A program made the translations under genes and the position numbers. The notes beneath the pieces were generated by a model. That model searched no databases, had not been told where the DNA came from, and was given only the letters and a program-made list of their open reading frames with translations. Positions 8,351 through 21,109 of a DNA stretch of 64,000 nt are shown piece after piece; within the stretch, counting starts at the first letter, position 1; each line of letters begins with the position of its first letter. Origin of the DNA: an uncultured cyanobacterium (GTDB lineage: Bacteria; Cyanobacteriota; Cyanobacteriia; Cyanobacteriales; Cyanobacteriaceae); contig CAVQBA010000001.1 in the NCBI GenBank assembly GCA_963710605.1, positions 160,001 through 224,000 of the forward strand, written 5' to 3'.

Positions 8351-8641
8351 ATGAATCTTGAATTACTTAAACAAAAACGAGCAGAAATTATTAATATTGC
8401 CAAAAAGCATGGTGCGTATAATATACGAGTATTTGGTTCGGTTGCCAGAGGCGAAGCCGATGAAAAAAGCGACATTGATTTTCTGATTGATTATGACATC
8501 GATAAAATTACCCCTTGGTTTCCTGTGGGGTTAATTCATGACTTGCAGGATTTCTTAGGTGAAAAAGTCGATGTTGTTACAGCCGATGGTTTAAAAGAAA
8601 GAATCAAACCAAGAGTTTTACAGGAGGCGATTACATTATGA
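8351..8641 (+). CDS. Minimal nucleotidyltransferase (MNT) antitoxin family
   Basis: VFGSVARGEADEKSDIDFL and KVDVVT motifs. Confidence 0.92.
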   Translation: MNLELLKQKRAEIINIAKKHGAYNIRVFGSVARGEADEKSDIDFLIDYDIDKITPWFPVGLIHDLQDFLGEKVDVVTADGLKERIKPRVLQEAITL

Positions 8642-11600
8642 CTAAACCAGACATTCAAAATATATTAAACGAATATATAGAGATTGTGATTCCAGCAATG
8701 TATGAGCAAAAATACCATCTAATATTAGCAAAAGGTGGTATTGATTATCCTTATCTGTGTGAGCAATCACATTTGAAACATAGTTTAAATGGTATTTTCG
8801 GTTTAATTGAAATACTTAAATTTATTCAATTAGAGAATCTTTTTGTTTATGGATTAAATGAGTCAATCATTCGTAAGGCTTTAGCATTGATTACTATTCA
8901 TGATGAGCACAAATTTAAAGATTATGAAAAAATTGGAAATTCAGAATTTGCAATTCCTTTAGAAAGACTTGAAAAAAAATATAAAACACTTAATTTAATT
9001 GATTTTGCAGGTGGATTGAATCCTCACATAATACGACATGGTAATGTCAGCAAAAGAAGTTCACATCACGGAGATTTATTATCTTCTGATGAAGAGCATG
9101 GAAGTTTACTGTGGTTATTAGTAAGAGTTGGAGATACTATTGCATCTGTTACCAGTGCTTCTGAAGCTGTAGTTTCATTAAGAAATTATTTAAGTGACTT
9201 AATTCCTGATTTTGCTAAAAAATATCAACTTTATTATCACGATTTGGGTGATATTCGGGGAGTTTTAACTAATTTAATTCATAGTACAGTAACTCAATAT
9301 TTAAGAAAACAATTTGGGTTTCAAGATATTGTTTATTTTGCAACAGGAACTCTTTATATAGGTAAAAAAGAAATTAATAATTTTGTAAGGAAATATTTTA
9401 TTGATAATCTTGTTAAAAATATTATTGATAATTTACAACCTTCAACAGAAATGGCTAAATCTGTTGCTAAAGATGGTGTAAGAGAAAAAAATTACGATTT
9501 TCAAGATTATATTTACAAATTATCTACTATCGAACTTTTACTAGAAATAATTTTAGAAACAACACAGACTATAAACAAACCTGATGGGAAAACTATAAAT
9601 AAAGATGTTCAAGCTATTGCTAAGAAAAAAACTACTCCTAATGGATGGTTAGATTCTTTTGAAGATAAATATAATGTATCATTAAATGAATCTGAAGATT
9701 TTCATAAAAGATGGTTTTTAGTAAGACGTTATTTATTATATGTTGACAATCTTTTAAAAGTACTTGTACCTGATTTAGATCAAGTTAGTTGGTTTTGTGA
9801 ATTATTTGAAATTTATCCTAATATAAAATTTAATATACAGGAAGAAAAACAATTATTTGCTAGTGGTGGTTTAGGTAAATATGTAATTATTTATGGTTAT
9901 CATTTTTTAAACGGCGTTGATTTTAAAAATAGATCAGCAGAATCTTGTGATTTTCCTAGAGTAATAGAATTACTTAATCAACGTATTGCTAATGCTGTTA
10001 GTAAAATTGATGATCGGGCTGGAAAAAACAAAATCATAGAAAAATTAGGTTTTAGAGAAGAACTAGGGAATTATTTGCAAGAAAATTTACTTTTATCTTT
10101 TTCCTCTAAAGTAAATTTAAGTGATGATTCATTTTCTGATTATGCTATCACTAAGAAAAAAGGACATTCAAATCAATTATGTTCTATTTGTAATCGAAAT
10201 AGTAAATATACCCAACCATTAAGAACAGGTATTTTAGGCGATTCAGGACAAAGTTTTTCCAATCGAGTTTTACCAGCTAAAAAAGTTCCTAATAATTTAC
10301 GTCCTTGGTGTCCAATTTGTCACTTAGAGTTTATTTTACGAAAAATCACAGGTTTGTCTTTACCTAAAGGTGCAGATTACAACAAATCTCGTCGCATCCA
10401 TCTTTATGTTTTGCCAACATTCTCTTTTACAGCAGAATCTATCAAGTTAATTGGCAGAGTATTAAAACCATTACAGGAAATTTCAGCCTTGCCCATCAGA
10501 GATTTTGGAGAAGAATCCCCGGATTACCTAATTTTTGGCTTAAAAATAGAAGTCTTGATCCTGAATGGATTGAGACGGTTATTGATGTATTTAATCGTGA
10601 AGCCCAAAGAATTGCTGAAAAACCTAATTATGTAGGAGAAAGATTACTTGCAACTCAAAATAATTTTAATCAAGAAGATGAAAATAATAAAGATGAAAAC
10701 AAAGCAAAACCACAACCTCATTATTATTTAATTCCTTGGGAGCGTTCAGTTTATGAAAGCGATAAAGATGATGCTAACATTCCCACTCGCACTGAAGCAT
10801 GGGCTAAGGCAACTTTTGCTGGTGTGATCATTTCTAGCTTAACCAGTAGTCGGGTTTATGTGACAGAACAACCATATTTATTTGTTGCCAATGCTTCTGA
10901 GTTAAAAGCCACTGTCACTCTTGATTCTCCACCACCGATTATTACTAAATTATTAGGTAGTGAACAAGACTCAAAACTTTGTAATCGTCCTGATACTATT
11001 AGTCTTTATGGAATGGAAAAGGGTTATAAAAGTGGCTTAGAGAGGGCATTAGATTTGTGTTCAGCTTTGTGGATGATTACCAGTAGTGTCCATCGTTCTA
11101 ACTCTCAAACTAAGGATAAACAGATAGCTCAAAGATTAGGCGACTTGCTAGTTAATCCCTTAGCCGGAGCTCATTTTTATAAAGAGTATGGGCGTTTAAA
11201 TGAGGATAAATCCCCATTTCTTTTACTTACTCAAGCTTGTGCAATTCTTTTAGAATATTTTGGAGGTGACTTAATGAATTTAGTGACAAAAAATTGCCGA
11301 GAAATCGTTACAAATTCGTCTTCCTTTTCGTGAATATGGAAGGGGAAAAGCTCATAATTATGAGTTAGTTTTACGAGAATCTGTTGATGCTATTCGAGGG
11401 GCTTTTCGGTTAATTTCTGAATTACGTCAAACAGCATTAACGGGTCAAATTCCTCCTGATGAAGCAATTACAGAGTTGAAAATCAAGCATCGGGAACGCT
11501 TCTAAAGGTATGGAAACACCGAAAAGCTACTAAACGAGGTGATGGTGTCATTAATCCTGAAGGCAAAGATTTAGGCGATTTAGTCGGAGAATTTATTGAT

Positions 11601-11790
11601 TTGATGATTGATGAAGTCTTTTTAGACCGTTGCGATCGAATCGTTTGCTCAATTCTTAAAACTAGAAAATAATCTTGCTGATGGTATTTATTATTACACC
11701 AATCGAAATGTTAATCAAAAATGGGAGGAATATAACGAGCTTAAAGCTAAAAACAAAGCTAAAAAAGATTCTGATAACCCCAATGATTAA
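8638..11790 (+). CDS. cas10d: Type I-D large subunit Cas10d/Csc3 with N-terminal HD domain (several frameshifts)
   Basis: AKGG...EQSHLKHSLNG, ITIHDEHK, CSICN, QSFSNR, CPICHLEFILRK; continues via 10824-11333 to DGIYYYTNRN...NPND* ending 11790. Confidence 0.88.
11274..11790 (+). CDS. cas11d: Probable internally translated small subunit Cas11d
   Basis: GGAGGT RBS at 11262-11267 followed by in-frame ATG 11274 in the 3' part of cas10d; internal Cas11d translation is established for type I-D. Confidence 0.65.
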
Positions 11791-11870
11791 GATACAAGCA
11801 AGATGCTTGTTTTACAAAACAATCTCAAAACTTGATTTAACTAATATTTATTCTTTAAGGAGAAACAACA

Positions 11871-12954
11871 ATGACTAGCAATAATAATCAATTTTCTACA
11901 CTTCAAAAATATGCTAAATATTTTGTATCTGAACCACCAAAAACACCTATGGGTAAATATGCAAGTATTCTTGTCTTACGAGAAACTAAATCCTACGCTA
12001 TTTTCACAACTGAAGGAGGTCAACAACAAGATATAGAAAGAACAAAAGCAGGTTTAAATAACTCGAATCCTGTAGATCGTTTAGTTATGTTTAAACGTAA
12101 ACAAGTTGCACCCGAAAGACGTACAGGAAAAGCATTGATGCGTCAATATAGTGTTTTTCCTTATGGCTTAGTCAAAAAAGAAAATAAATTTCAGAGTGTG
12201 GCTTATGGTGAAAATGCGATTGCAGAAGCAGAAGCTAAAAAGAAAGATAAAGTTAATATTAAATCTTATTCTGACTGCTATTTGACCGCAGGATTATGTG
12301 GACATTGCACTGATTGTATGACTTATGGTTATGCGGCGATCGAAGGTGAAGGTTCGCGCTCAAGTCGCATTATCACAGATTCATGTTTTACAGTGCGTCC
12401 TTATGCCTTAATTCAAAAAGGTTTGAAGTTTAATGTAATTGATGAAAAAACCCAAACTTCAGGGACAATAACTGAATATGATTATACTCAACCCGAAGTC
12501 TTTTTACCCTCAGTCGTTACTACCGTTGATTTAACCTTAGAAGAATTTGTTTATACTCTGATTAATCTTCTACGCACAACACGTTACGGGAAAGAAGCTT
12601 CACGTCAAGGTTTTATGCGGAATCACATTTTAGGAATTGCTTTTTCTGATGTGGAATTATTCTCAAATCTTGAATTTAGTCAAGCTTTTTATGATGTTTT
12701 TAAAGATGATGAAAATATTGATTTAATGAAGGGCTTTTTATCTTTACAACATTTTTCAGAATCATAAAAAGCAAATTATTCAAACATTAACAAGTAAGTT
12801 AAATGGACGGTTAAATATTATTAATAATTCTGAAGAATTAGAAGCTATTTTAGCTGAAATTCGGACATTAAACCAAGATGAAACTGCTTTAACAGAATTT
12901 TTACAAAATCTCAACACTCAATCTGCACGTTTTTCTATTGAACTTAATAATTAA
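11871..12954 (+). CDS. csc2: Type I-D Cas7/Csc2 (frameshift near 12765)
   Basis: LRETKSYAIFTTEG, FKRKQVAPERRTGK, CGHCTDCMTYGYA, LRTTRYG. Confidence 0.92.
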
Positions 12955-12956
12955 TT

Positions 12957-13767
12957 ATGGAAATTTATCGAGCCAAATTAGAGGTTTTGGATTACCTGTT
13001 TTATGCAACAACCGAGATTGGAAAAGTTTATGAAACAGGTGCATTTATTCATAATTACGCCTTATGTTATGGCTTAAAATTAGTAAATGCTCCTTATTCT
13101 CGTCAAATCCAAAAACCTACTTATGAACAAGACTTAAAGCCTTTAAAGGAATTAGGAATTTATATAACACCTGCTTATCCTTTGCAAATATCCTATCGTT
13201 TAATTCAATGGAATACCATTCAAGAAAGATATGGTTTTCACAGGGAAAGAGAAGAATATTGGTTATCCAGATTGGGGCTTTGCTCGTGTTATTACTCCTG
13301 AAAGTTTGTTTGAATTTTATATTTTAATTGCTGATATTCAAACACTAAAACATTATCCTCAACTAGAGCAATTAATAACAGAAAAAACTGGTTATATTCG
13401 ACTAGGTAAATTTTTAGCAAAATCAAGTTTGGCTTTAACAAAAGCTCAAGAAATAACCACAAAAAAAGGTTTATTTGTAGCAGGTATTACAGATGATAGA
13501 GGAAGATTACCATCAGAAAAAGGTCAATCATCTCTATTATTAAACTGGCGAGATATAACTCTTGATCCTTTTACTTGTGATATTTATCCTGCAACTTTAC
13601 CAACTCGTTTAATAGCTAATCCTAAATATGAAAATGCTAATTTTTATCATATTAATTTTGGAGATAAAGATGAAATTAAACTACCACAAAATATGAGTTT
13701 TGTTGCTCGTCCACTAACTAGCAATAACAAGAAAAATAAAACTGCTAAAAAGACAGAAAATGATTAA
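12957..13767 (+). CDS. csc1: Type I-D Cas5/Csc1 (frameshift near 13240)
   Basis: LFYATTEIGKVYETGAFIHNYALCYGL, YITPA, YIRLGKF. Confidence 0.9.
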
Positions 13768-15877
13768 TTTAAACATTTCTCCTGTTACTTTAAATCAAGT
13801 TAATACTGATCAATGGCTAACAGGAAAAAAACCTCATGAATATCAATGGAAAGCTTATCAATTAATTCAAGAAGCTTTTAAACAAAAAAAAACATTATGT
13901 TTATTCTTAATAACTCCTACCGGAAGTGGTAAAACTTTAGCTTCTTATGCTCATAGTATCAAAACAGGTTTACCCGTGATTGGAGCTTATCCTACCAATG
14001 AATTACTAGCAGACCAAGAGAGGGCTTTATCTGATGAATATAAACAAACAGGTACGAATATAATAGAACGAATAGATAGCGAAACTCTAGATAGATTACA
14101 AATAGAATATGAGTTAAATCGTCATAGTCAAACTTTAGAGAAAATTCTGAATCAAAGACCAGTAATTTTAACCAACCCAGATATATTATTTTATGTGATT
14201 TTTGGATTATATCCAGCTATTTATAGTTTAAGGGAAAGATTATGGTCATTAGTTGGTAGTTATAAACTATTTGTTTATGATGAATTTCATTTATATAATG
14301 TTAAACAACAAGCAGATACAGCCTTTTTTATTGGTGCTTTAAATACGATTAAATCTGATACTCCTAGAGTGTTTATTTTTGCTTCAGCTACACCTAATTT
14401 AGAAATAGTTAACTTATTAAAAAATAAACTTAATTTATGGGTAGAAACCGTTGCTTCAACACCATCAAATCAAGACTCAGCTTATACTATTGCTCATCCT
14501 GTTAATTTAACATTAATTCCTTCTAATTTGGACAAATGGCAAGGATTAAAAACTTTAGATGAATCTTTTGATATTATTACATCTTTCAATCAAAAATATT
14601 CTGATTCTCGTTATGTTGGAATTTTTGATTCTGTTGCAGGTGCTATTGGTGCAGCTAAAAGTTTTAAAAATTTTTTTGAATTTGCTCAAGTAGGAGAAAT
14701 ACATGGTTTAAGTTCAAAAAAAATGAGGGAAGAATCACTAGCAAAAAAAGTAACTATTGGCACATCAACTATAGAAGTAGGTGTTGATTTTAAAGGAAAA
14801 TATGAAAAAGATTTTTTAATCTTAGAAGCAAGGACAAGTAGTCAATTTATTCAACGATTTGGACGTATTGCTAGACATAATAAATCATTAAATATTCCCA
14901 ATCAAGTTTTAGCACTTGTACCTGATTATGTTTCTAACTATTTTGAGGAAAAACTTACATCTGAGTCAAATATTACTCGTCAAGAATTAACTAATTTAAT
15001 CGAAGAAGCCTACCGTGATTTAGAAAACTTTGAACGTTATTTGAGTAAACATGCTTTAGTTGAGATGATTGAAGCAAGTAATTTAGTAATGAGACTATTT
15101 CAGGCAGATGTTAAACCTAGAATTAAAGATGGGTTAGCTAATGTAATAAAAAAACTAACAGGCAAAAGTTATGAACAAGCACAGGCTAGAAGAAAAGAAT
15201 ATAAAAATGAAAAAATATTAAATCCATTATTAACATTTAGGGGAAGTGGTTTAGAAGTAGCAATTATCGATAAACGAGGTGACGATGTAGGGTTTCCTAT
15301 AAAAAGATATAATCTAATGTTTATTTTAAGACGAGGTATTTTTGACGAAATTAGTCAAGATACTTTTGTTAAAAAGTTAGAAAAAATAGAACAACAGGAT
15401 TCTCAATATAATTATGAAATTCATCGTGAAAAAAGATTTTCTGAACTTACTAAGCCTTCATCTGAAGAATTGCTTGGAGTCTATGGATTTTTTCGTTTGA
15501 AAGGATTAATTGATGATGGTGATAAAACTAGACGAGTTTGGTTTGAAATCAATCAAGAAGATATTGAAGGAAAGTCTGGAAAAGTTACTGTTTTAGAAAG
15601 ATTATCTATTCAAACTGAACCTAAAACTTTTATCAGATTACTTCAAAAAGTGTTTCGCAAAAAACAGATAGTTGCTTGGGTAATCGATAAACATCCACAT
15701 AGTATTAAATTTGGTCGTTCATTACCTCCTTTATTTGCTATTTATGAATTGCAAGTAATACTTGTAGGTGGTGGTCATAGTAAACAATCATGGAGTATTG
15801 CTTTTAACCAAGATGCTTTCTTTTTGGATAGTCTGTATTGGAATCTAAACAAGTCTAATGATTTTATGTGCTGTTAA
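13760..15877 (+). CDS. cas3: Type I-D Cas3' helicase (no HD domain)
   Basis: PTGSGKT, YPTNEL, LTNPDI, DEFHLY, SATP, QRFGRIARH. Confidence 0.93.
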   Translation: MINLNISPVTLNQVNTDQWLTGKKPHEYQWKAYQLIQEAFKQKKTLCLFLITPTGSGKTLASYAHSIKTGLPVIGAYPTNELLADQERALSDEYKQTGTNIIERIDSETLDRLQIEYELNRHSQTLEKILNQRPVILTNPDILFYVIFGLYPAIYSLRERLWSLVGSYKLFVYDEFHLYNVKQQADTAFFIGALNTIKSDTPRVFIFASATPNLEIVNLLKNKLNLWVETVASTPSNQDSAYTIAHPVNLTLIPSNLDKWQGLKTLDESFDIITSFNQKYSDSRYVGIFDSVAGAIGAAKSFKNFFEFAQVGEIHGLSSKKMREESLAKKVTIGTSTIEVGVDFKGKYEKDFLILEARTSSQFIQRFGRIARHNKSLNIPNQVLALVPDYVSNYFEEKLTSESNITRQELTNLIEEAYRDLENFERYLSKHALVEMIEASNLVMRLFQADVKPRIKDGLANVIKKLTGKSYEQAQARRKEYKNEKILNPLLTFRGSGLEVAIIDKRGDDVGFPIKRYNLMFILRRGIFDEISQDTFVKKLEKIEQQDSQYNYEIHREKRFSELTKPSSEELLGVYGFFRLKGLIDDGDKTRRVWFEINQEDIEGKSGKVTVLERLSIQTEPKTFIRLLQKVFRKKQIVAWVIDKHPHSIKFGRSLPPLFAIYELQVILVGGGHSKQSWSIAFNQDAFFLDSLYWNLNKSNDFMCC

Positions 15878-15978
15878 TTAATATGCCTCCTGTTAGTTTA
15901 ATTCGTAATGTGACCATGGAAGGAAAATATTACCAAGACTTTAATCTTCCTGTCAACATCAATTATCGCTTTCACTAA
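15877..15978 (+). pseudogene. 3' remnant of a second, canonical cyanobacterial csc1
   Basis: Translates INMPPVSLIRNVTMEGKYYQDFNLPVNINYRFH*, matching the recalled C-terminal NMPPVSLI.NV...G.YYQ motif of cyanobacterial Csc1. Confidence 0.75.
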
Positions 15979-16076
15979 TTCTTTTTGACGACAATCCTAA
16001 TCTCCCTACACCACACAATATTGATAATTATCAGTCTGCGAATGATATTCAACCCCTACGACAATACATTAAAAAT

Positions 16077-16895
16077 ATGCCTTACAGTCTCGTCATTAAC
16101 TTTACCAATACCACCGATATTCCTCGTGGTTATACCTCAGGAAAACACTTACACGCTCTATTCCTAACTCTTGTAAATTCGATCGATAATCAGTTAGCAG
16201 AATACTTACATCGATCGTCATCTAACAAAGATTTTACCATTAGTCCCTTACAAGTAGTAAATCATCAAAATCAAAATCAAATTACTTGGCAAAAACAAAA
16301 AAAAGATATCAAAAAAGGTTCAAACTGTTGGTGGCGAATTACCCTCTTAGACGATCGTTTATTTGGTTTATTAACTCCTTTATGGCTTAGTATTAATCCT
16401 CAAAAACCGTTTCATTTAGGAAGTGGCGAATTACAAATAACTAGTATTTTATCTAGTAATAATAGTCACCCTTGGGCTAATGCTTGTACTTATCAAGATA
16501 TTAATGAAAATGCTTCGCAAACTAATAGAAATCTTCAGTTTAAAATATACACACCAATGGCTTTTCGTCAAGGTAAATACGATATATCTTTACCAACTGC
16601 CGATTTAGTTTTTTCTAGCATATTAAGGCGTTGGAATAATTACAGTAATCTTCCTTTTGATAATGTCGATTTTAGCTCTATCTTTCCTGCTTATTTCGAT
16701 TTAAAAACCGAAGTTGTGATTAACGATAAGAATAAATTTATTGGTTGTGTAGGAGATATTAATTACAAGATTTTAGGTGAGATAGATTCGTCTTTAATTA
16801 AGACAATAAATATTCTTGCTGACTATGTTTTTTACTGTGGAATTGGCAGAAAAACCACTATGGGGATGGGCATAACTACAAGAGTTAAAAGTTAA
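16077..16895 (+). CDS. cas6: CRISPR endoribonuclease Cas6
   Basis: MPYSLV, GKHLHALFL, TPMAFRQG, G-rich loop YCGIGRKTTMGMG. Confidence 0.95.
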   Translation: MPYSLVINFTNTTDIPRGYTSGKHLHALFLTLVNSIDNQLAEYLHRSSSNKDFTISPLQVVNHQNQNQITWQKQKKDIKKGSNCWWRITLLDDRLFGLLTPLWLSINPQKPFHLGSGELQITSILSSNNSHPWANACTYQDINENASQTNRNLQFKIYTPMAFRQGKYDISLPTADLVFSSILRRWNNYSNLPFDNVDFSSIFPAYFDLKTEVVINDKNKFIGCVGDINYKILGEIDSSLIKTINILADYVFYCGIGRKTTMGMGITTRVKS

Positions 16896-16915
16896 GAGTT
16901 AAGAGTTAAAAGTTA
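16881..16915. repeat. Heptamer array A(G/A)AGTTA x5
   Basis: Runs from the last cas6 codons to the ATG of the next gene. Confidence 0.9.
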
Positions 16916-17262
16916 TGAAACGAAGTATTGTTTATGAAAAGGCTTATAAATTTTCTATTCGAGTTATTAAAGCCTATAAATATTTGACAAAAGAAAAAAA
17001 AGAATTTGTTTTGTCCAAACAATTATTACGCTGTGGTACTTCAATTGGTGCAAATATTGCTGAAGCAAATGGGGCTATTTCTCAAGCTGATTTTAAAAAT
17101 AAAATGTCGATCGCTTACAAAGAATCTTTAGAAACAATATATTGGTTATCCCTATTAAAAGACACAGAATATATTGAAGAAAAATCGTATCAAAGTATCA
17201 ATAAAGAGGTAGTCGAAATCAGCAAAATGTTATGTTCGATTGTCAAAAATACCAATTCTTAA
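16915..17262 (+). CDS. Four-helix-bundle protein (23S rRNA IVS protein / TIGR02436-like)
   Basis: KQLLRCGTSIGANIAEA, DFKNKMSIAYKESLETIYWL. Confidence 0.92.
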   Translation: MKRSIVYEKAYKFSIRVIKAYKYLTKEKKEFVLSKQLLRCGTSIGANIAEANGAISQADFKNKMSIAYKESLETIYWLSLLKDTEYIEEKSYQSINKEVVEISKMLCSIVKNTNS

Positions 17263-17299
17263 CTCTTAACTCTTAACTTTTAACTCTTAACTTTCAACT
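17260..17299. repeat. Heptamer array TAACT(C/T)T x5, inverted relative to 16881-16915
   Basis: Runs from the stop codon to the cas4 ATG. Confidence 0.9.
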
Positions 17300-17926
17300 A
17301 TGGACTATATTCCTATCGCATCTTTAAACCATTACAGCTATTGCCCTCACCGATTTTGGCGGATGTTTTGTGCTTCTGAATTTACAGACAATCAGTACAC
17401 CATAGATGGCACTACATTACACGATCGAGTTCATACCGTGGGGGACTTAAATAGAGAGGAAACTTGGCAGATTCGAGCAATATGGCTTAAATACGAGCGT
17501 TATCAACTTATTGGTAAAGCAGACTTAATTGAAGTGGAAAATGGTGAATTCATCCCGATTGAATACAAAAGAGGACGGAAAAACCAATGGACAAACGATG
17601 CCCTACAAGTTGCCGCTCAAGCCTTATGTTTGGAAGAAATGACCGACACAAGTATCGATATTGGTTATGTTTATTACGCTCAAACACACCAACGGCAAGA
17701 GGTAAAAATAGATCGACAATTAAGAGATTTGACAGTAGAAACGATCGATCGAATCAAAAATATTATGAATAACAACATCATACCACCAGCCCAATACGAC
17801 AAACGTTGCAAGGGTTGTAGTCTTTATTCTGCTTGTCTGCCGAGGGCGAGTAAAAAAATCGAATCGTTATCAAGAAGCAAATTAAACAAAAAAGTGTTTT
17901 TTCAAAAGAAATACTGTAGGGGTTGA
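17300..17926 (+). CDS. cas4: Cas4 (true stop possibly near 17885)
   Basis: YSYCPHR, GKADLIE, IEYKRG, QVAAQALCLEEM, CKGCSLYSAC. Confidence 0.95.
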   Translation: MDYIPIASLNHYSYCPHRFWRMFCASEFTDNQYTIDGTTLHDRVHTVGDLNREETWQIRAIWLKYERYQLIGKADLIEVENGEFIPIEYKRGRKNQWTNDALQVAAQALCLEEMTDTSIDIGYVYYAQTHQRQEVKIDRQLRDLTVETIDRIKNIMNNNIIPPAQYDKRCKGCSLYSACLPRASKKIESLSRSKLNKKVFFQKKYCRG

Positions 17927-17963
17927 ACATTGTTCAACCCTAAACCCTTATTCAACCCTAAAC
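17915..17963. repeat. REP-like hairpin GTAGGGGTTGAAC...GTTCAACCCT
   Basis: Related copies near 16040-16061 and 26910-26937. Confidence 0.7.
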
Positions 17964-17999
17964 CAAGAAAACAAAATATTTAACTTTAAGAGGATAAAC

Positions 18000-19014
18000 A
18001 TGGGAACAATTTACGTAACACACGAAGACGCATTTATCGGCAAAATAGATGAAAGAATACAAGTCAAAGCGGATAAAGAAAAAATATTAGACGTACCGCT
18101 AATTAAAACAGACGGCTTGGTAGTTTTAGGAAGAGCGACTATTTCTCCAGCTTTAATCAGTGAAGTTTTAGAAAGAAAAATACCCGTATCTTATTTAACC
18201 AAAACAGGAAAATATCGAGGACGACTAGAACCAGAATTAACCAAAAATATTTTTATCAGAAAAGCACAATGGTTAGCAGTAATGAATGAAGATAATACAC
18301 AAGTTATTCATGTTGTTCGGGCATTTATTCGGGGAAAACTAAAAAATTATCGTAACTTAATTAATCTTAGAAATAGACAGTCGAATAATCATCATTTAAC
18401 AAAAAGTATTACTAAAATAGAATCAATTATAAACTCTTTAGCTACCGCAGATAATGTTAATTCTTTAAGAGGATTAGAAGGTGCGGGAAGTGCGATTTAT
18501 TTTAGTTGTTTTAACCAGCTAATTAAAAACGATCGATTTAGTTTTAATACCCGCAATCGTCGTCCGCCAAAAGATCCCGTTAACTCGTTATTAAGTTTTA
18601 CTTATGCTTTACTCAGACACGATATTCAAAGTGCGGTAAATATTGTCGGGGTTCGATCCTTATTTGGGTTATCTTCATGTTCCTCATTATGGCAGACCAG
18701 CACTAGCTTTGGATTTGATGGAAGAATTTAGACCTTTAGTTGCTGATGCGGTAGTTTTAAATGCGATTAATAATCAAAAAATAACTCCTGAAGATTTTGT
18801 CAGCGAGCCTTTAAGTGAAGCAGTTTCTTTGACGAAAGATGGACTAAAAATATTTTTGCGTTTGTATGAAGAAAAAAAACAATCCAAGTTTAAACATCCT
18901 GTACTGAAAAGACAAGTTACTTATCAAGAATCTTTTGAAATTCAAGCACGATTTTTAGGTAAATATTTAATGGCAGAAACTCAGCAGTATCCACCTTTAA
19001 TTATTAAAAAATAA
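18000..19014 (+). CDS. cas1: Cas1 (frameshift near 18650)
   Basis: LRGLEGAGSAIYF, RNRRPPKDPVNSLLS, DPYLGYLH, LALDLMEEFRP. Confidence 0.95.
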
Positions 19015-19088
19015 AAAGCATAACGATCGATTTTTCGTTCGATACTGAGTAAAAAAAAGGAATAACCTATCAACTATCAATTAATTAA

Positions 19089-19361
19089 ATGTATGTAGTT
19101 ATCAGTTACGATATATCTGAAAATAAAAGAAGAACTAAAATACACAAAATTCTCAAGTCTTATGGAGAATGGGTACAATATAGTATATTCGAGTGTGAGC
19201 TAAGCCAAACTCAATACGCTAAATTACGCGATCGTCTAAGTAAAATAATCGATAACGAAACTGATAATATTCGTTTTTATTTTATGTGTCAATCCTGTCA
19301 AAAGAAAATCGAACGTATTGGCGGAGAATTACCTCGTGATAATACTGTCTTTTTTGCTTAA
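19089..19361 (+). CDS. cas2: Cas2
   Basis: VISYDI, WVQYSIFEC, DNIRFY, CQSC. Confidence 0.96.
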   Translation: MYVVISYDISENKRRTKIHKILKSYGEWVQYSIFECELSQTQYAKLRDRLSKIIDNETDNIRFYFMCQSCQKKIERIGGELPRDNTVFFA

Positions 19362-19538
19362 TTGGCGTAAGGGGTAGGGTGTAAAAATGAGGATTTGAGA
19401 AAAACCAGTTCAAATCTTTATTCTGTAAGAGTTTTAGCAATCGAGATATTCAACAGCCTTACGCCCTTTACACAGTAAAATTTTCAGCGTTTTGACTACC
19501 TTTTTCTTCTAGCTATAAGTTATAATATGAGTACCCTT
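19362..19538 (+). promoter_or_regulatory. CRISPR leader, distal part with probable promoter
   Basis: Inverted motif GGCGTAAGG (19364-72) / CCTTACGCC (19457-65); TATAAT at 19521-19526. Confidence 0.7.
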
Positions 19539-20368
19539 GTGCGACCTGAAAAGTTGCAAGAGAAAAGTCGAATTAAAACTCGCCAACGAGTCATCCGTTG
19601 TGTTATCACCCGAAGGGGCTACATGAGCAATTGTATAGTTTCACAGCTAGAGGGTAATGTCAAGGAAGAATATAGTTAGCAATTACTCCAATTGGCTAGA
19701 TAAAGATGATTATGAAGTCGAATATGTTGATTGAAGCCTCCTAATCATAAGTCACTTGAAATGCTAAATGATACGAGTGATACGAAGATTAGTTCCTTAA
19801 CTATTTATTTAAGGAAAAAAAAGTCATAAGATTAAGGGTTTTTTATGATGATGAACGACATATCTTCGGGGGTATAGACATCTTCTAAAATCATCGCATC
19901 TTAACTCTTGTAAAACAGGATAACTCCCATATGTTCCTATTAGGTAAGGAGAGAGCAATCTCAAATGATGGCATAGGGGAATTAGGATATTAAAGAAGCG
20001 AAGGCTCTCAAATCGCAAGATAACAGGAAAGACTTAACAGTTATAACTGGAGAGATAGGGAAATACCCAATCCGAAAGGATGCTGACTTTAAATGGTATT
20101 TACTAGTTTAGTAGAATCGGAGAAAATAATTAAACCATTATGGAAAAGATAGATGAGTCTAACAACTCAATCGTAACTAATGGGACTTTAACGTGGAACG
20201 ACATTAATTGGCGTAAAACCACAAACAAAGTTCAAGGATTGATGTACCGCATTTACCGAACAACTAAGAGAAAAAATCTTAGAGTAAGTGCTTGAGCTGA
20301 ATGCTTGGAAACTTGCACGTTCAATTCTTAGGGGAGAAAGGGGGAGAAATCCTTCTGCCTTACCCGAC
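19539..20368 (+). mobile_element. Group II intron with internally deleted ORF (non-autonomous)
   Basis: 5' GTGCG; EBS1 AAGGGT (19834-39) in a hairpin loop; domain V 20294-20327 GAGCTGAATGCTTGGAAACTTGCACGTTCAATTC; domain VI ending TTACCCGAC. Confidence 0.92.
20140..20295 (+). pseudogene. Remnant of the intron RT/maturase (RVT_N only, 51 aa)
   Basis: MEKIDES...TWNDINWRKTTNKVQGLMYRIYRTTK...SA*; W..INWRK....V..L..RIYR motif. Confidence 0.85.
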
Positions 20369-20419
20369 ACGCAATCGAACCTTGAAATTCAAATATATCA
20401 ATGCTTTCAATCGTGAGCA
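20369..20419 (+). promoter_or_regulatory. CRISPR leader, repeat-proximal 51 bp
   Basis: ACGCAATCGAACCTTGAAA motif typical of cyanobacterial leaders; directly precedes repeat 1. Confidence 0.75.
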
Positions 20420-21109
20420 GTTGAAATCGACTATAATCCCTATGAGGGATTGAAACTGGGCATAATCTTTTCTTTGATTAAAGGAATTGGGTTGAAATCG
20501 ACTATAATCCCTATGAGGGATTGAAACCTGTTTTCAGCCCTGACATATAAAATCTTAAAATGTTGAAATCGACTATAATCCCTATGAGGGATTGAAACTT
20601 TGTCTCCTTACAAGATAAGCGGAAGCTGAAAAGTTGAAATCGACTATAATCCCTATGAGGGATTGAAACGCTGTCGCAGAATCACAAAGCATATCTAAGA
20701 GATGTTGTTGAAATCGACTATAATCCCTATGAGGGATTGAAACTTAAAACTCCTCCATAGGTAAGCCAAAGCATCATATATGTTGAAATCGACTATAATC
20801 CCTATGAGGGATTGAAACATGTCAATGACGAGAACAGACGAATTTATAAATATCGTTGAAATCGACTATAATCCCTATGAGGGATTGAAACTTTTGTCAA
20901 GTTTGCTCATGAGTTTAATTTCATCAGTTGAAATCGACTATAATCCCTATGAGGGATTGAAACAATTATATAAACAATCGCACGAGAAAACCAATTAAAA
21001 GTTGAAATCGACTATAATCCCTATGAGGGATTGAAACTTTGACATATACTCCATTTACCGATAAAAGTGAACGTTGAAATCGACTATAATCCCTACGAGG
21101 GATTGAAAC
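20420..21109 (+). CRISPR. CRISPR array: 10 repeats of 37 bp, 9 spacers of 34-38 bp
   Basis: GTTGAAATCGACTATAATCCCTATGAGGGATTGAAAC at 20420, 20491, 20562, 20633, 20707, 20782, 20855, 20927, 21001, 21073; last copy has one T>C change. Confidence 0.99.

Follow-up and report, generated by a model that had tools for sequence, protein, structure and literature searches.

An open-reading-frame-less group II intron in the promoter-proximal leader of a cyanobacterial type I-D CRISPR array, from a lineage that appears to home just behind -10 boxes

Three target specificities of bacterial group II introns, namely homing sites, terminators and attC sites, are listed in the pertinent section of a 2015 review (PMC4424553). 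Group IIC introns insert after intrinsic terminators and the IIC-attC introns at attC, according to passages of that review and of PMC3001079, and a IIB1 intron, EcKTE56.groEL, is presented in an excerpt of PMC12584367 as specialised for the groEL stop codon. Introns that lack an open reading frame (ORF) are also described: in Thermosynechococcus elongatus group II introns without an ORF are served in trans by the intron-encoded proteins (IEPs) of related introns (passages of PMC4424553 and of PMC2882425, Mohr et al. 2010), and bacterial ORF-less introns in general nearly always have a related IEP in the same genome, the sole known exception in the review's passage on them being C.te.I1 of Clostridium tetani (PMC4424553). 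[quoted passage not shown] The element considered here is an ORF-less group II intron of 830 nt with domains I-VI, situated at 19539-20368 of a 64,000-nt stretch of DNA from an uncultured cyanobacterium (hereafter the window; features given by position lie on its plus strand), where it interrupts the leader of a type I-D CRISPR array in sense orientation. We favour, with a probability of roughly 0.7, the explanation that it is a non-autonomous, IIB-like and chloroplast-like intron, which inserted into the promoter-proximal part of the leader on account of a promoter-type site and is tolerated there. In the portions of the literature covered by our search, no description was found of a group II intron that separates the first CRISPR repeat from the promoter, with the qualification that the supplement of PMC7434947 may list the positions of the type IV-A3 introns; nor was anything relevant found there on promoter-linked insertion of group II introns.

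The identity of the element is established by its 3' part together with its homologs. The Rfam model RF00029 (Intron_gpII, gathering score 40) matches 20292-20368 with 48.4 bits (E = 2e-6 for the whole window and 3.7e-8 for a 1.2-kb stretch); this is the sole match of the model within the window, and it ends exactly at 20368, the last base of the intron. The match and the comparison with homologs delimit domain V at 20294-20327, a 34-nt hairpin with the AGC triad, an AC bulge and a GAAA loop, in which two base pairs differ from the homologs and are compensatory in each case, while two U.U appositions in the upper helix are common to the whole lineage. The Rfam alignment and the fold place the linker and domain VI at 20328-20368, with a bulged A at 20362, 7 nt from the 3' end, and with the sequence ACCCGAC at its close, so that the intron terminates in GAC with the expected final AC. 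At the other boundary the intron opens with GTGCGAC at 19539, of which GTGCG (19539-19543) conforms to GUGYG and is common to all homologs of the lineage. Domains I-III are 66-70% identical to those homologs at the DNA level, and the Rfam group-II-D1D4 models gave no match to domains I-IV even at E<=10. When the window copy was scored against a consensus structure obtained with RNAalifold from three homologs, 130 of the 166 pairs were kept, 5 were gapped and 31 broken, and among the kept pairs 31 are changed on both sides relative to the homolog majority, i.e., are compensatory; the 156-159 pairs out of 166 retained by the homologs themselves are an inflated yardstick, as the consensus was built from them. 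Additionally, the window copy still has the segment that directly precedes domain V and is common to the homologs.

The first-pass annotation had proposed an ORF-deleted group II intron here on the basis of the letters alone, and the coordinates, GTGCG end, domains V and VI, loop-bearing hairpin and distances that it gave for the element all agree with the above. The call itself is sustained by the 48.4-bit match, by the remnant of a reverse-transcriptase gene, by homologs that carry the ORF and by an empty site in a relative; as regards the covariance models that it had named as a check, Intron_gpII scored above its cut-off, whereas the models for domains I-IV stayed silent.

The empty site is furnished by a genome of the same genus (G001, locus L044, minus strand), which displays the same order of cas2, leader and array without the intron, the junction lying between its positions 1501 and 1500, such that the equivalents of 19538 and 20369 are directly joined. 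More broadly, related leaders were matched in 18 of 41 genomes and 12 loci were retrieved, the window's own included, the flanks of the window copy being aligned as separate rows. None of the 11 leaders of the relatives is interrupted and all share one length, about 228 nt counted from the cas2 stop up to repeat 1, and the 5' part of the window's leader (19362-19538), which on the DNA constitutes the 5' exon of the intron, aligns with them. A -10-like TATAAT box at 19521-19526, which recurs at other insertion sites of the lineage (see below), is conserved in this family's leaders: some 63 nt before repeat 1, a comparable box occurs with at most one mismatch in the seven members of the family and in looser form in the four from other families. 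It is followed on its 3' side by a strongly conserved block, the 5' edge of which is split by the intron (CTT / ACGCAAT) only in the window. The intron thus begins 12 nt after the box (19527-19538) and ends 51 nt before repeat 1, and those 51 nt next to the repeat (20369-20419), the most conserved block of the leader among the relatives, are left untouched by the insertion. The placement originally proposed, in sense within the leader between a TATAAT box and the first repeat, is therefore upheld, and the comparison with intron-less leaders that had been suggested alongside it confirms both boundaries through the junction in G001.

Inspection of the flanks of related introns suggests that this position is characteristic of the lineage. 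Thirteen distinct insertion sites, from the lineage and its sister subfamily, form the basis of the comparison. An exact TATAAT is present at -18..-13 or -19..-14 in five of these (the window, L175, L156, L154 and G012:C174), i.e., 12-13 nt upstream of the insertion point, two further sites match it at 5/6 positions at -18..-13 (TACAAT in G013:C256 and AATAAT in copy b of G002), and one, G012:C19, has TAAACT at -18..-13. The background in the window's own genome (33.4% G+C), counted per site over the two offsets, is 0.0013 for an exact box and 0.028 for a match of at least 5/6, from which the binomial probability of at least five exact boxes in 13 sites is 4.5e-12; the offsets were chosen post hoc, yet the margin is large. 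On the other side of the intron, a gene start on the same strand follows at 27-47 nt in five of the seven informative copies, the genes in question coding for ribosomal protein L9, a protein with the Rpb1_1 domain of RNA polymerase, an ABC ATPase, an M50 peptidase and a pentapeptide-repeat protein; the Pfam profiles of L9, Rpb1_1 and ABC_tran are matched from their N-terminal ends onwards. The 3' flanks of copy a of G002 and of G012:C98 do not fit this arrangement, and two further copies run off their contigs. The layout of the lineage accordingly reads: -10 box, a gap of 12-13 nt, the intron, some tens of nucleotides and the start codon, with repeat 1 taking the place of the start codon in the window. 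Judged by these sites, the habitat of the lineage seems to be the extreme 5' end of 5' untranslated regions (UTRs), the promoter of the leader being one such site. One of the G002 copies is flanked by convergent genes and lacks a box at the customary spacing. As to how the box is read, the window copy has one candidate for direct RNA pairing, ATTATG at about intron position 172; it was rejected, as its conservation does not extend to the other copies with an exact box, and inspection of the homolog alignments by eye found no conserved intron segment complementary to the hexamer; the box is therefore probably read by the protein of the intron, or reflects the use of active promoters.

In addition to the box, the site has a few bases with the potential to pair with the exon-binding sites (EBSs) of domain I. 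Two hairpins of its D-arm are relevant in this regard: hairpin 1 (19793-19815; stem TTCCTTAA/TTAAGGAA, loop CTATTTA), a candidate EBS2 hairpin identified by folding and alignment, and hairpin 2 (19824-19848; stem TCATAA/TTATGA), the stem of which is homologous in all members of the lineage and the 13-nt loop of which includes AAGGGT (19834-19839), the candidate EBS1. The latter is complementary by 6/6 Watson-Crick pairs to ACCCTT at 19533-19538, the candidate intron-binding site 1 (IBS1); for a 13-nt loop to match the six bases preceding the splice site exactly, we estimate a chance probability of about 0.002. RNAfold places AAGGGT in the hairpin loop, the two D-arm hairpins together giving a z of -2.2. 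By comparison, ATGAGT at 19527-19532 is a weak candidate IBS2, which pairs only with the help of G-U pairs, the loop of hairpin 1 reaching -12..-6 only if two of these are included. We take hairpin 2 to be the canonical EBS1 hairpin from its place in the order of domain I sub-stems, as the last hairpin before the strand returns. Ungapped complementarity lists and alignments for the homologs show EBS1-type pairing through hairpin 2 also in L175 and L164, whereas in G018:C24, L154 and G013:C256 the best pairing that reaches -1 uses hairpin 1 instead; G018:C24 and L154 are independent sites that share nine bases before the intron. The EBS1-IBS1 pairing of the first-pass annotation is hence exact in the window copy, but the assignment to hairpin 2 is mixed across the lineage.

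The capacity of the intron for autonomous movement has been lost. Its domain IV holds a remnant of the IEP gene at 20140-20295, which opens with an ATG at 20140 and comprises 51 codons and a stop overlapping the start of domain V. This remnant matches positions 1-30 of the Pfam family RVT_N (E 5e-5; 23.9 bits, below the cut-off of 28.1), recovers in tblastn searches the N-termini of the reverse-transcriptase/maturase IEPs of other introns in the same genome, and shares its MEKID... start with the intact 628-amino-acid IEP of a homolog in a related genome (L145); nothing else of the reverse transcriptase/maturase is left in the window intron. The intact protein displays RVT_N, RVT_1, GIIM and HNH domains, the HNH domain following the maturase domain, and its closest solved structure is the T.el4h maturase (6ME0_C, E 1e-108), so that the window intron is assigned here to a probable IIB-like, chloroplast-like lineage with an IEP nearest to T.el4h among PDB structures. 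In four other genomes of the family the homologs measure about 2.2-2.6 kb and have ORFs that are intact or broken, and one further homolog, of 796 nt, is ORF-less with deletion ends that differ from those of the window copy. The ORF was lost at least twice in the lineage, by different deletion ends, and both ORF-less copies keep the shared sequence preceding domain V. Among the homologs, the two G002 copies (L146 and L147) are near-identical with unrelated 5' flanks, share the first 16 nt beyond the intron's 3' end, and lack part of a segment that the other homologs carry between the D-arm hairpins and the ORF. In two other cyanobacterial introns with the same domain V motif, on L064 and L060, no more than 776 and 1028 nt separate the 5' end from domain V; these are probably ORF-less copies as well, belonging to another subfamily.

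With regard to a maturase acting in trans, megablast-type and word-7 blastn searches of the window's own genome recovered no further copy of the intron DNA, save one 39-nt match on contig C5. The genome has 11 other RF00029 matches and several long stop-free IEP reading frames, all of them of distant kinds. The assembly is 85% complete, being without even an rpoB domain, and a cognate maturase copy may be missing from it; the orphan status of the intron is thus provisional, because the assembly is incomplete. On contig C5, five of the twelve RF00029 matches of the genome and several reverse-transcriptase/maturase frames cluster in about 20 kb (at about 11-30 kb), some of them broken or closely spaced, which could represent an intron-rich island or nested introns.

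These observations can be brought together in the following scenario. The leader would have been chosen not as a CRISPR leader but for its TATAAT-type box 12-13 nt upstream and for a short stretch that can pair with the exon-binding loops, much as elsewhere the same lineage would sit a few nucleotides into the 5' UTRs that precede ordinary genes. At such sites the host promoter would transcribe the element and no coding sequence would be interrupted. Cleavage at the repeats by Cas6 should free the CRISPR RNAs (crRNAs) whether or not the leader has been spliced. In the leader, tolerance would be even greater because Cas6 cuts the crRNAs out of the repeats, so that their production would need transcription through 830 nt rather than splicing. 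The arrival of the intron may be ascribed to retrohoming or retrotransposition by a ribonucleoprotein (RNP) supplied in trans, or the ORF may have been lost after insertion. The element is most likely a tolerated, non-autonomous retroelement without a dedicated function, as opposed to a regulator of the CRISPR system, and a role in crRNA output is in our view unlikely.

Several lines of evidence weigh against parts of this scenario. The rule for the insertion sites was noticed post hoc and on only 13 of them, of which two, G018:C24 and copy a of G002, have the box at another distance and three, G018:C136, L159 and L164, have none. The promoter scan did not list the TATAAT of the window, there being no -35 element at 16-18 nt from the box, and its seven sites are no excess over the 5.7 found in shuffled sequences. 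In the type I-D array of Synechocystis 6803 the leader is transcribed over 213 nt, according to a passage of PMC3575380. It is possible that an equivalent start in the window would fall near the cas2 stop and would provide the intron with a normal 5' exon; the very short 5' exon would hold if the TATAAT defines the start, which would fit the lineage-wide pattern. We infer, as opposed to observe, that the box is an active promoter and that the array is transcribed through the intron. On the side of the ribozyme, the 31 broken pairs, a C.A apposition adjoining the AGC triad in domain V (by our reading of the Rfam alignment) and a diverged loop of hairpin 0, which is conserved in the homologs, indicate that it may be decaying; the best IEP in the same genome is only 38-40% identical to that of the lineage, at odds with the usual arrangement of a maturase in trans; and cas10d, csc1/cas5d and cas1 each read as two overlapping ORFs in different frames, such that the locus may be inactive.

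These latter points lend themselves to a different explanation, in which the intron is an inactivating relic: a dead insertion that cuts the array off from its promoter, or that terminates or destabilises the precursor, in a decaying locus with a silent or nearly silent array. The three split cas genes, that of cas1 through a 1-nt insertion relative to G001, are in line with this, as are a second, intact cas1 elsewhere on the contig, the want of a cognate maturase in the assembly and the defects in pairing. However, the splits may be assembly errors, the indel in cas1 being located at a G4 run and the assembly only 85% complete; cas3', cas6, cas4, cas2 and csc2 are intact, as are all ten repeats, nine of which are identical; no terminator-like site was found in 19000-20600; and the 31 compensatory pairs along with the retained sequence before domain V argue for upkeep of the RNA's structure during the greater part of its past. 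A relic is accordingly considered unlikely, if worth bearing in mind. Far less probable is the converse proposal that the leader intron is a regulatory ribozyme, the splicing of which, or its failure, sets the level or timing of crRNA production. The sense position between the likely promoter and repeat 1, the presence of all six domains and the intact 6-bp EBS1-IBS1 match would permit such a role, but the insertion is unique, the 11 related leaders being without it and hence giving no sign of selection for the arrangement, crRNAs should be freed by Cas6 irrespective of splicing in the leader, and no maturase is available in the assembly. No more credible is an array promoter supplied from inside the intron, after the fashion of the outward-facing promoters of IIC-attC introns (a precedent in a passage of PMC3001079): a single weak promoter-like site of 9/12 matches lies within the intron on the plus strand, at 20088-20117, but the scan sites are no more numerous than in shuffles and the conserved upstream box is intact.

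The tolerated-insertion explanation also has to be set against the earlier idea that the lineage homes specifically to CRISPR leaders as its natural target. The single case in the window, with its exact IBS1 match, is what speaks for it. Among 401 genomes taken as a sample of the order, a search for the lineage's 5'-end pattern recovered eight places in five, every one belonging to a single family, and in addition 37 metagenome stretches, of which about eight belong to the lineage or the sister subfamily, three of these repeating sites already counted or being without a flank. The domain V motif was rejected as a marker of the lineage, as it is common across phyla (73 loci); few of these loci had a recognisable 5' end and they added no insertion sites. 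A simple array finder, which does detect the window's own array, found CRISPR-like arrays at none of 22 lineage loci, 73 domain-V-motif loci, 37 metagenome loci and 21 other intron loci of the same genome. The lineage copies with readable flanks sit before ordinary genes, in line with the gene starts noted above. The survey of homologs' insertion sites, which the first-pass annotation had itself recommended, thus yielded mostly 5' regions of ordinary genes and no CRISPR leaders; with the 11 related leaders empty as well, CRISPR-specific homing is not supported and can be regarded as extremely improbable.

What remains is the manner in which a promoter-type site is recognised. In its strongest form, for which we would give nearly even odds, the lineage would follow a fourth target rule for bacterial group II introns: insertion 12-13 nt behind a -10 hexamer, at about +5/+6 of the transcript, whereby each copy would be transcribed by the host with a 5' exon of a few nucleotides and with nothing interrupted, the CRISPR leader being the first promoter of something other than an mRNA to be colonised and the pre-crRNA being made through the ribozyme. 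The RNP might here read the hexamer on the DNA, or might exploit the non-template strand melted by an initiating polymerase. A serious contender, though one held somewhat short of an even chance, is that TATAAT at -18..-13 is simply a distal motif of the 5' exon read by the IEP on double-stranded DNA, the location in 5' UTRs then following from the frequency of such boxes before genes; this would amount to ordinary recognition of a homing site, without a share for promoter activity, and departs from the favoured explanation only in mechanism. Beyond its maturase domain the lineage IEP does continue into a C-terminal region that includes an HNH endonuclease domain, IEPs add to target specificity through DNA contacts of their D domain (a passage of PMC4424553), and by eye no conserved intron segment is complementary to the box. 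Conversely, the box is degenerate in the way of promoters (TACAAT, TAAACT, AATAAT). It keeps the positions that are important for -10 elements. The data at hand do not separate reading by the IEP from recognition of active promoters.

The type I-D cas operon occupies 8638-19361 and, by Pfam and NCBIfam matches, is composed of cas10d/csc3 (8638-10635, with a continuation up to 11333 in a different frame), csc2/cas7d (11871-12767), the split csc1/cas5d (12957-13301 and 13231-13767), cas3' (13760-15877), cas6 (16077-16895), cas4 (17300-17926), the split cas1 (18000-18731 and 18643-19014) and cas2 (19089-19361), with a gene of the 23S-rRNA-IVP (intervening-sequence) family placed inside it between cas6 and cas4 (16915-17262; PF05635, E 5e-32). 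Together with the array of ten 37-nt repeats at 20420-21109, recognised by RF01318 (CRISPR-DR5) with 49.5 bits for the nine identical repeats and 43.5 for the diverged last one, this represents the complete gene set of a type I-D system. As to whether the frameshifts are real, secA was inspected and is intact in the assembly, and the splits in the cas genes could be either genuine decay or assembly error. A second, intact type I-D-like cas1, a 336-amino-acid open frame at C1:302580-303563 of the same genome, lies about 124 kb downstream of that of the window, and a second CRISPR-Cas locus is therefore implied. Directly upstream of cas10d there is a gene for an MntA-like nucleotidyltransferase antitoxin (8351-8641; NF047752, E 1e-10, below the cut-off).

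The leader itself displays further conserved elements. A block directly after cas2, GGCGTAAGGGGTAGGGTGTAAAA (19365-19386), is conserved in relatives from several families, and about 90 nt downstream of it is a partly complementary block, CCTTACGCC...TTTACAC, at 19458-19475; these may form a stem that is conserved where the leader begins, or mark the end of the cas transcript. Further, the most conserved block of the leader (20385-20395 in the window and the equivalent stretch in the leaders of L044-L054) holds ACCTTGAAAAC, or CCTTGAAATTC in the window, which resembles the 3' end of the repeat, ATTGAAAC.

Beyond the original claim, the most interesting outcome is that the lineage appears, from the sites compared, to home just behind -10 boxes, with a CRISPR leader among its promoters. 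If confirmed, such a promoter-proximal site rule would constitute a new way for a retroelement to occupy a niche, and the lineage would provide a case from nature of splicing in which the 5' exon is minimal. For CRISPR biology, a leader that can absorb 830 nt at a distance of 51 nt from repeat 1 bears on which of its parts are needed for expression and for the integration of spacers.

When set beside the described systems, the intron is like those of T. elongatus in being of a cyanobacterial, IIB-like type that has lost its ORF and kept all ribozyme domains, in a lineage whose IEP is nearest T.el4h, but differs in being single-copy, in having no close IEP gene assembled (38-40% at best) and in residing in a CRISPR leader. 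Like C.te.I1 it is an orphan among bacterial ORF-less introns; unlike it, its own genome contains 11 other RF00029 matches and long IEP frames, all of them distant, and the assembly is incomplete. With the type IV-A3 cases it shares the presence of a retroelement within a CRISPR-Cas locus, whereas its position is known to the base, in sense and between a -10 box and repeat 1, matters of leader position and orientation on which the passage of PMC7434947 is silent. The resemblance to EcKTE56.groEL consists in one intron lineage colonising one particular genetic context, which there is a single conserved gene and here many unrelated promoters. With the group IIC introns the lineage has in common sites set by a transcription signal, as opposed to a long unique homing site, and harmless non-coding positions. 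Class C IEPs are not known to carry an HNH domain. The lineage, in contrast, has an IEP with HNH and an IIB-like domain I, and it lodges at the opposite end of the transcription unit, behind the -10 box.

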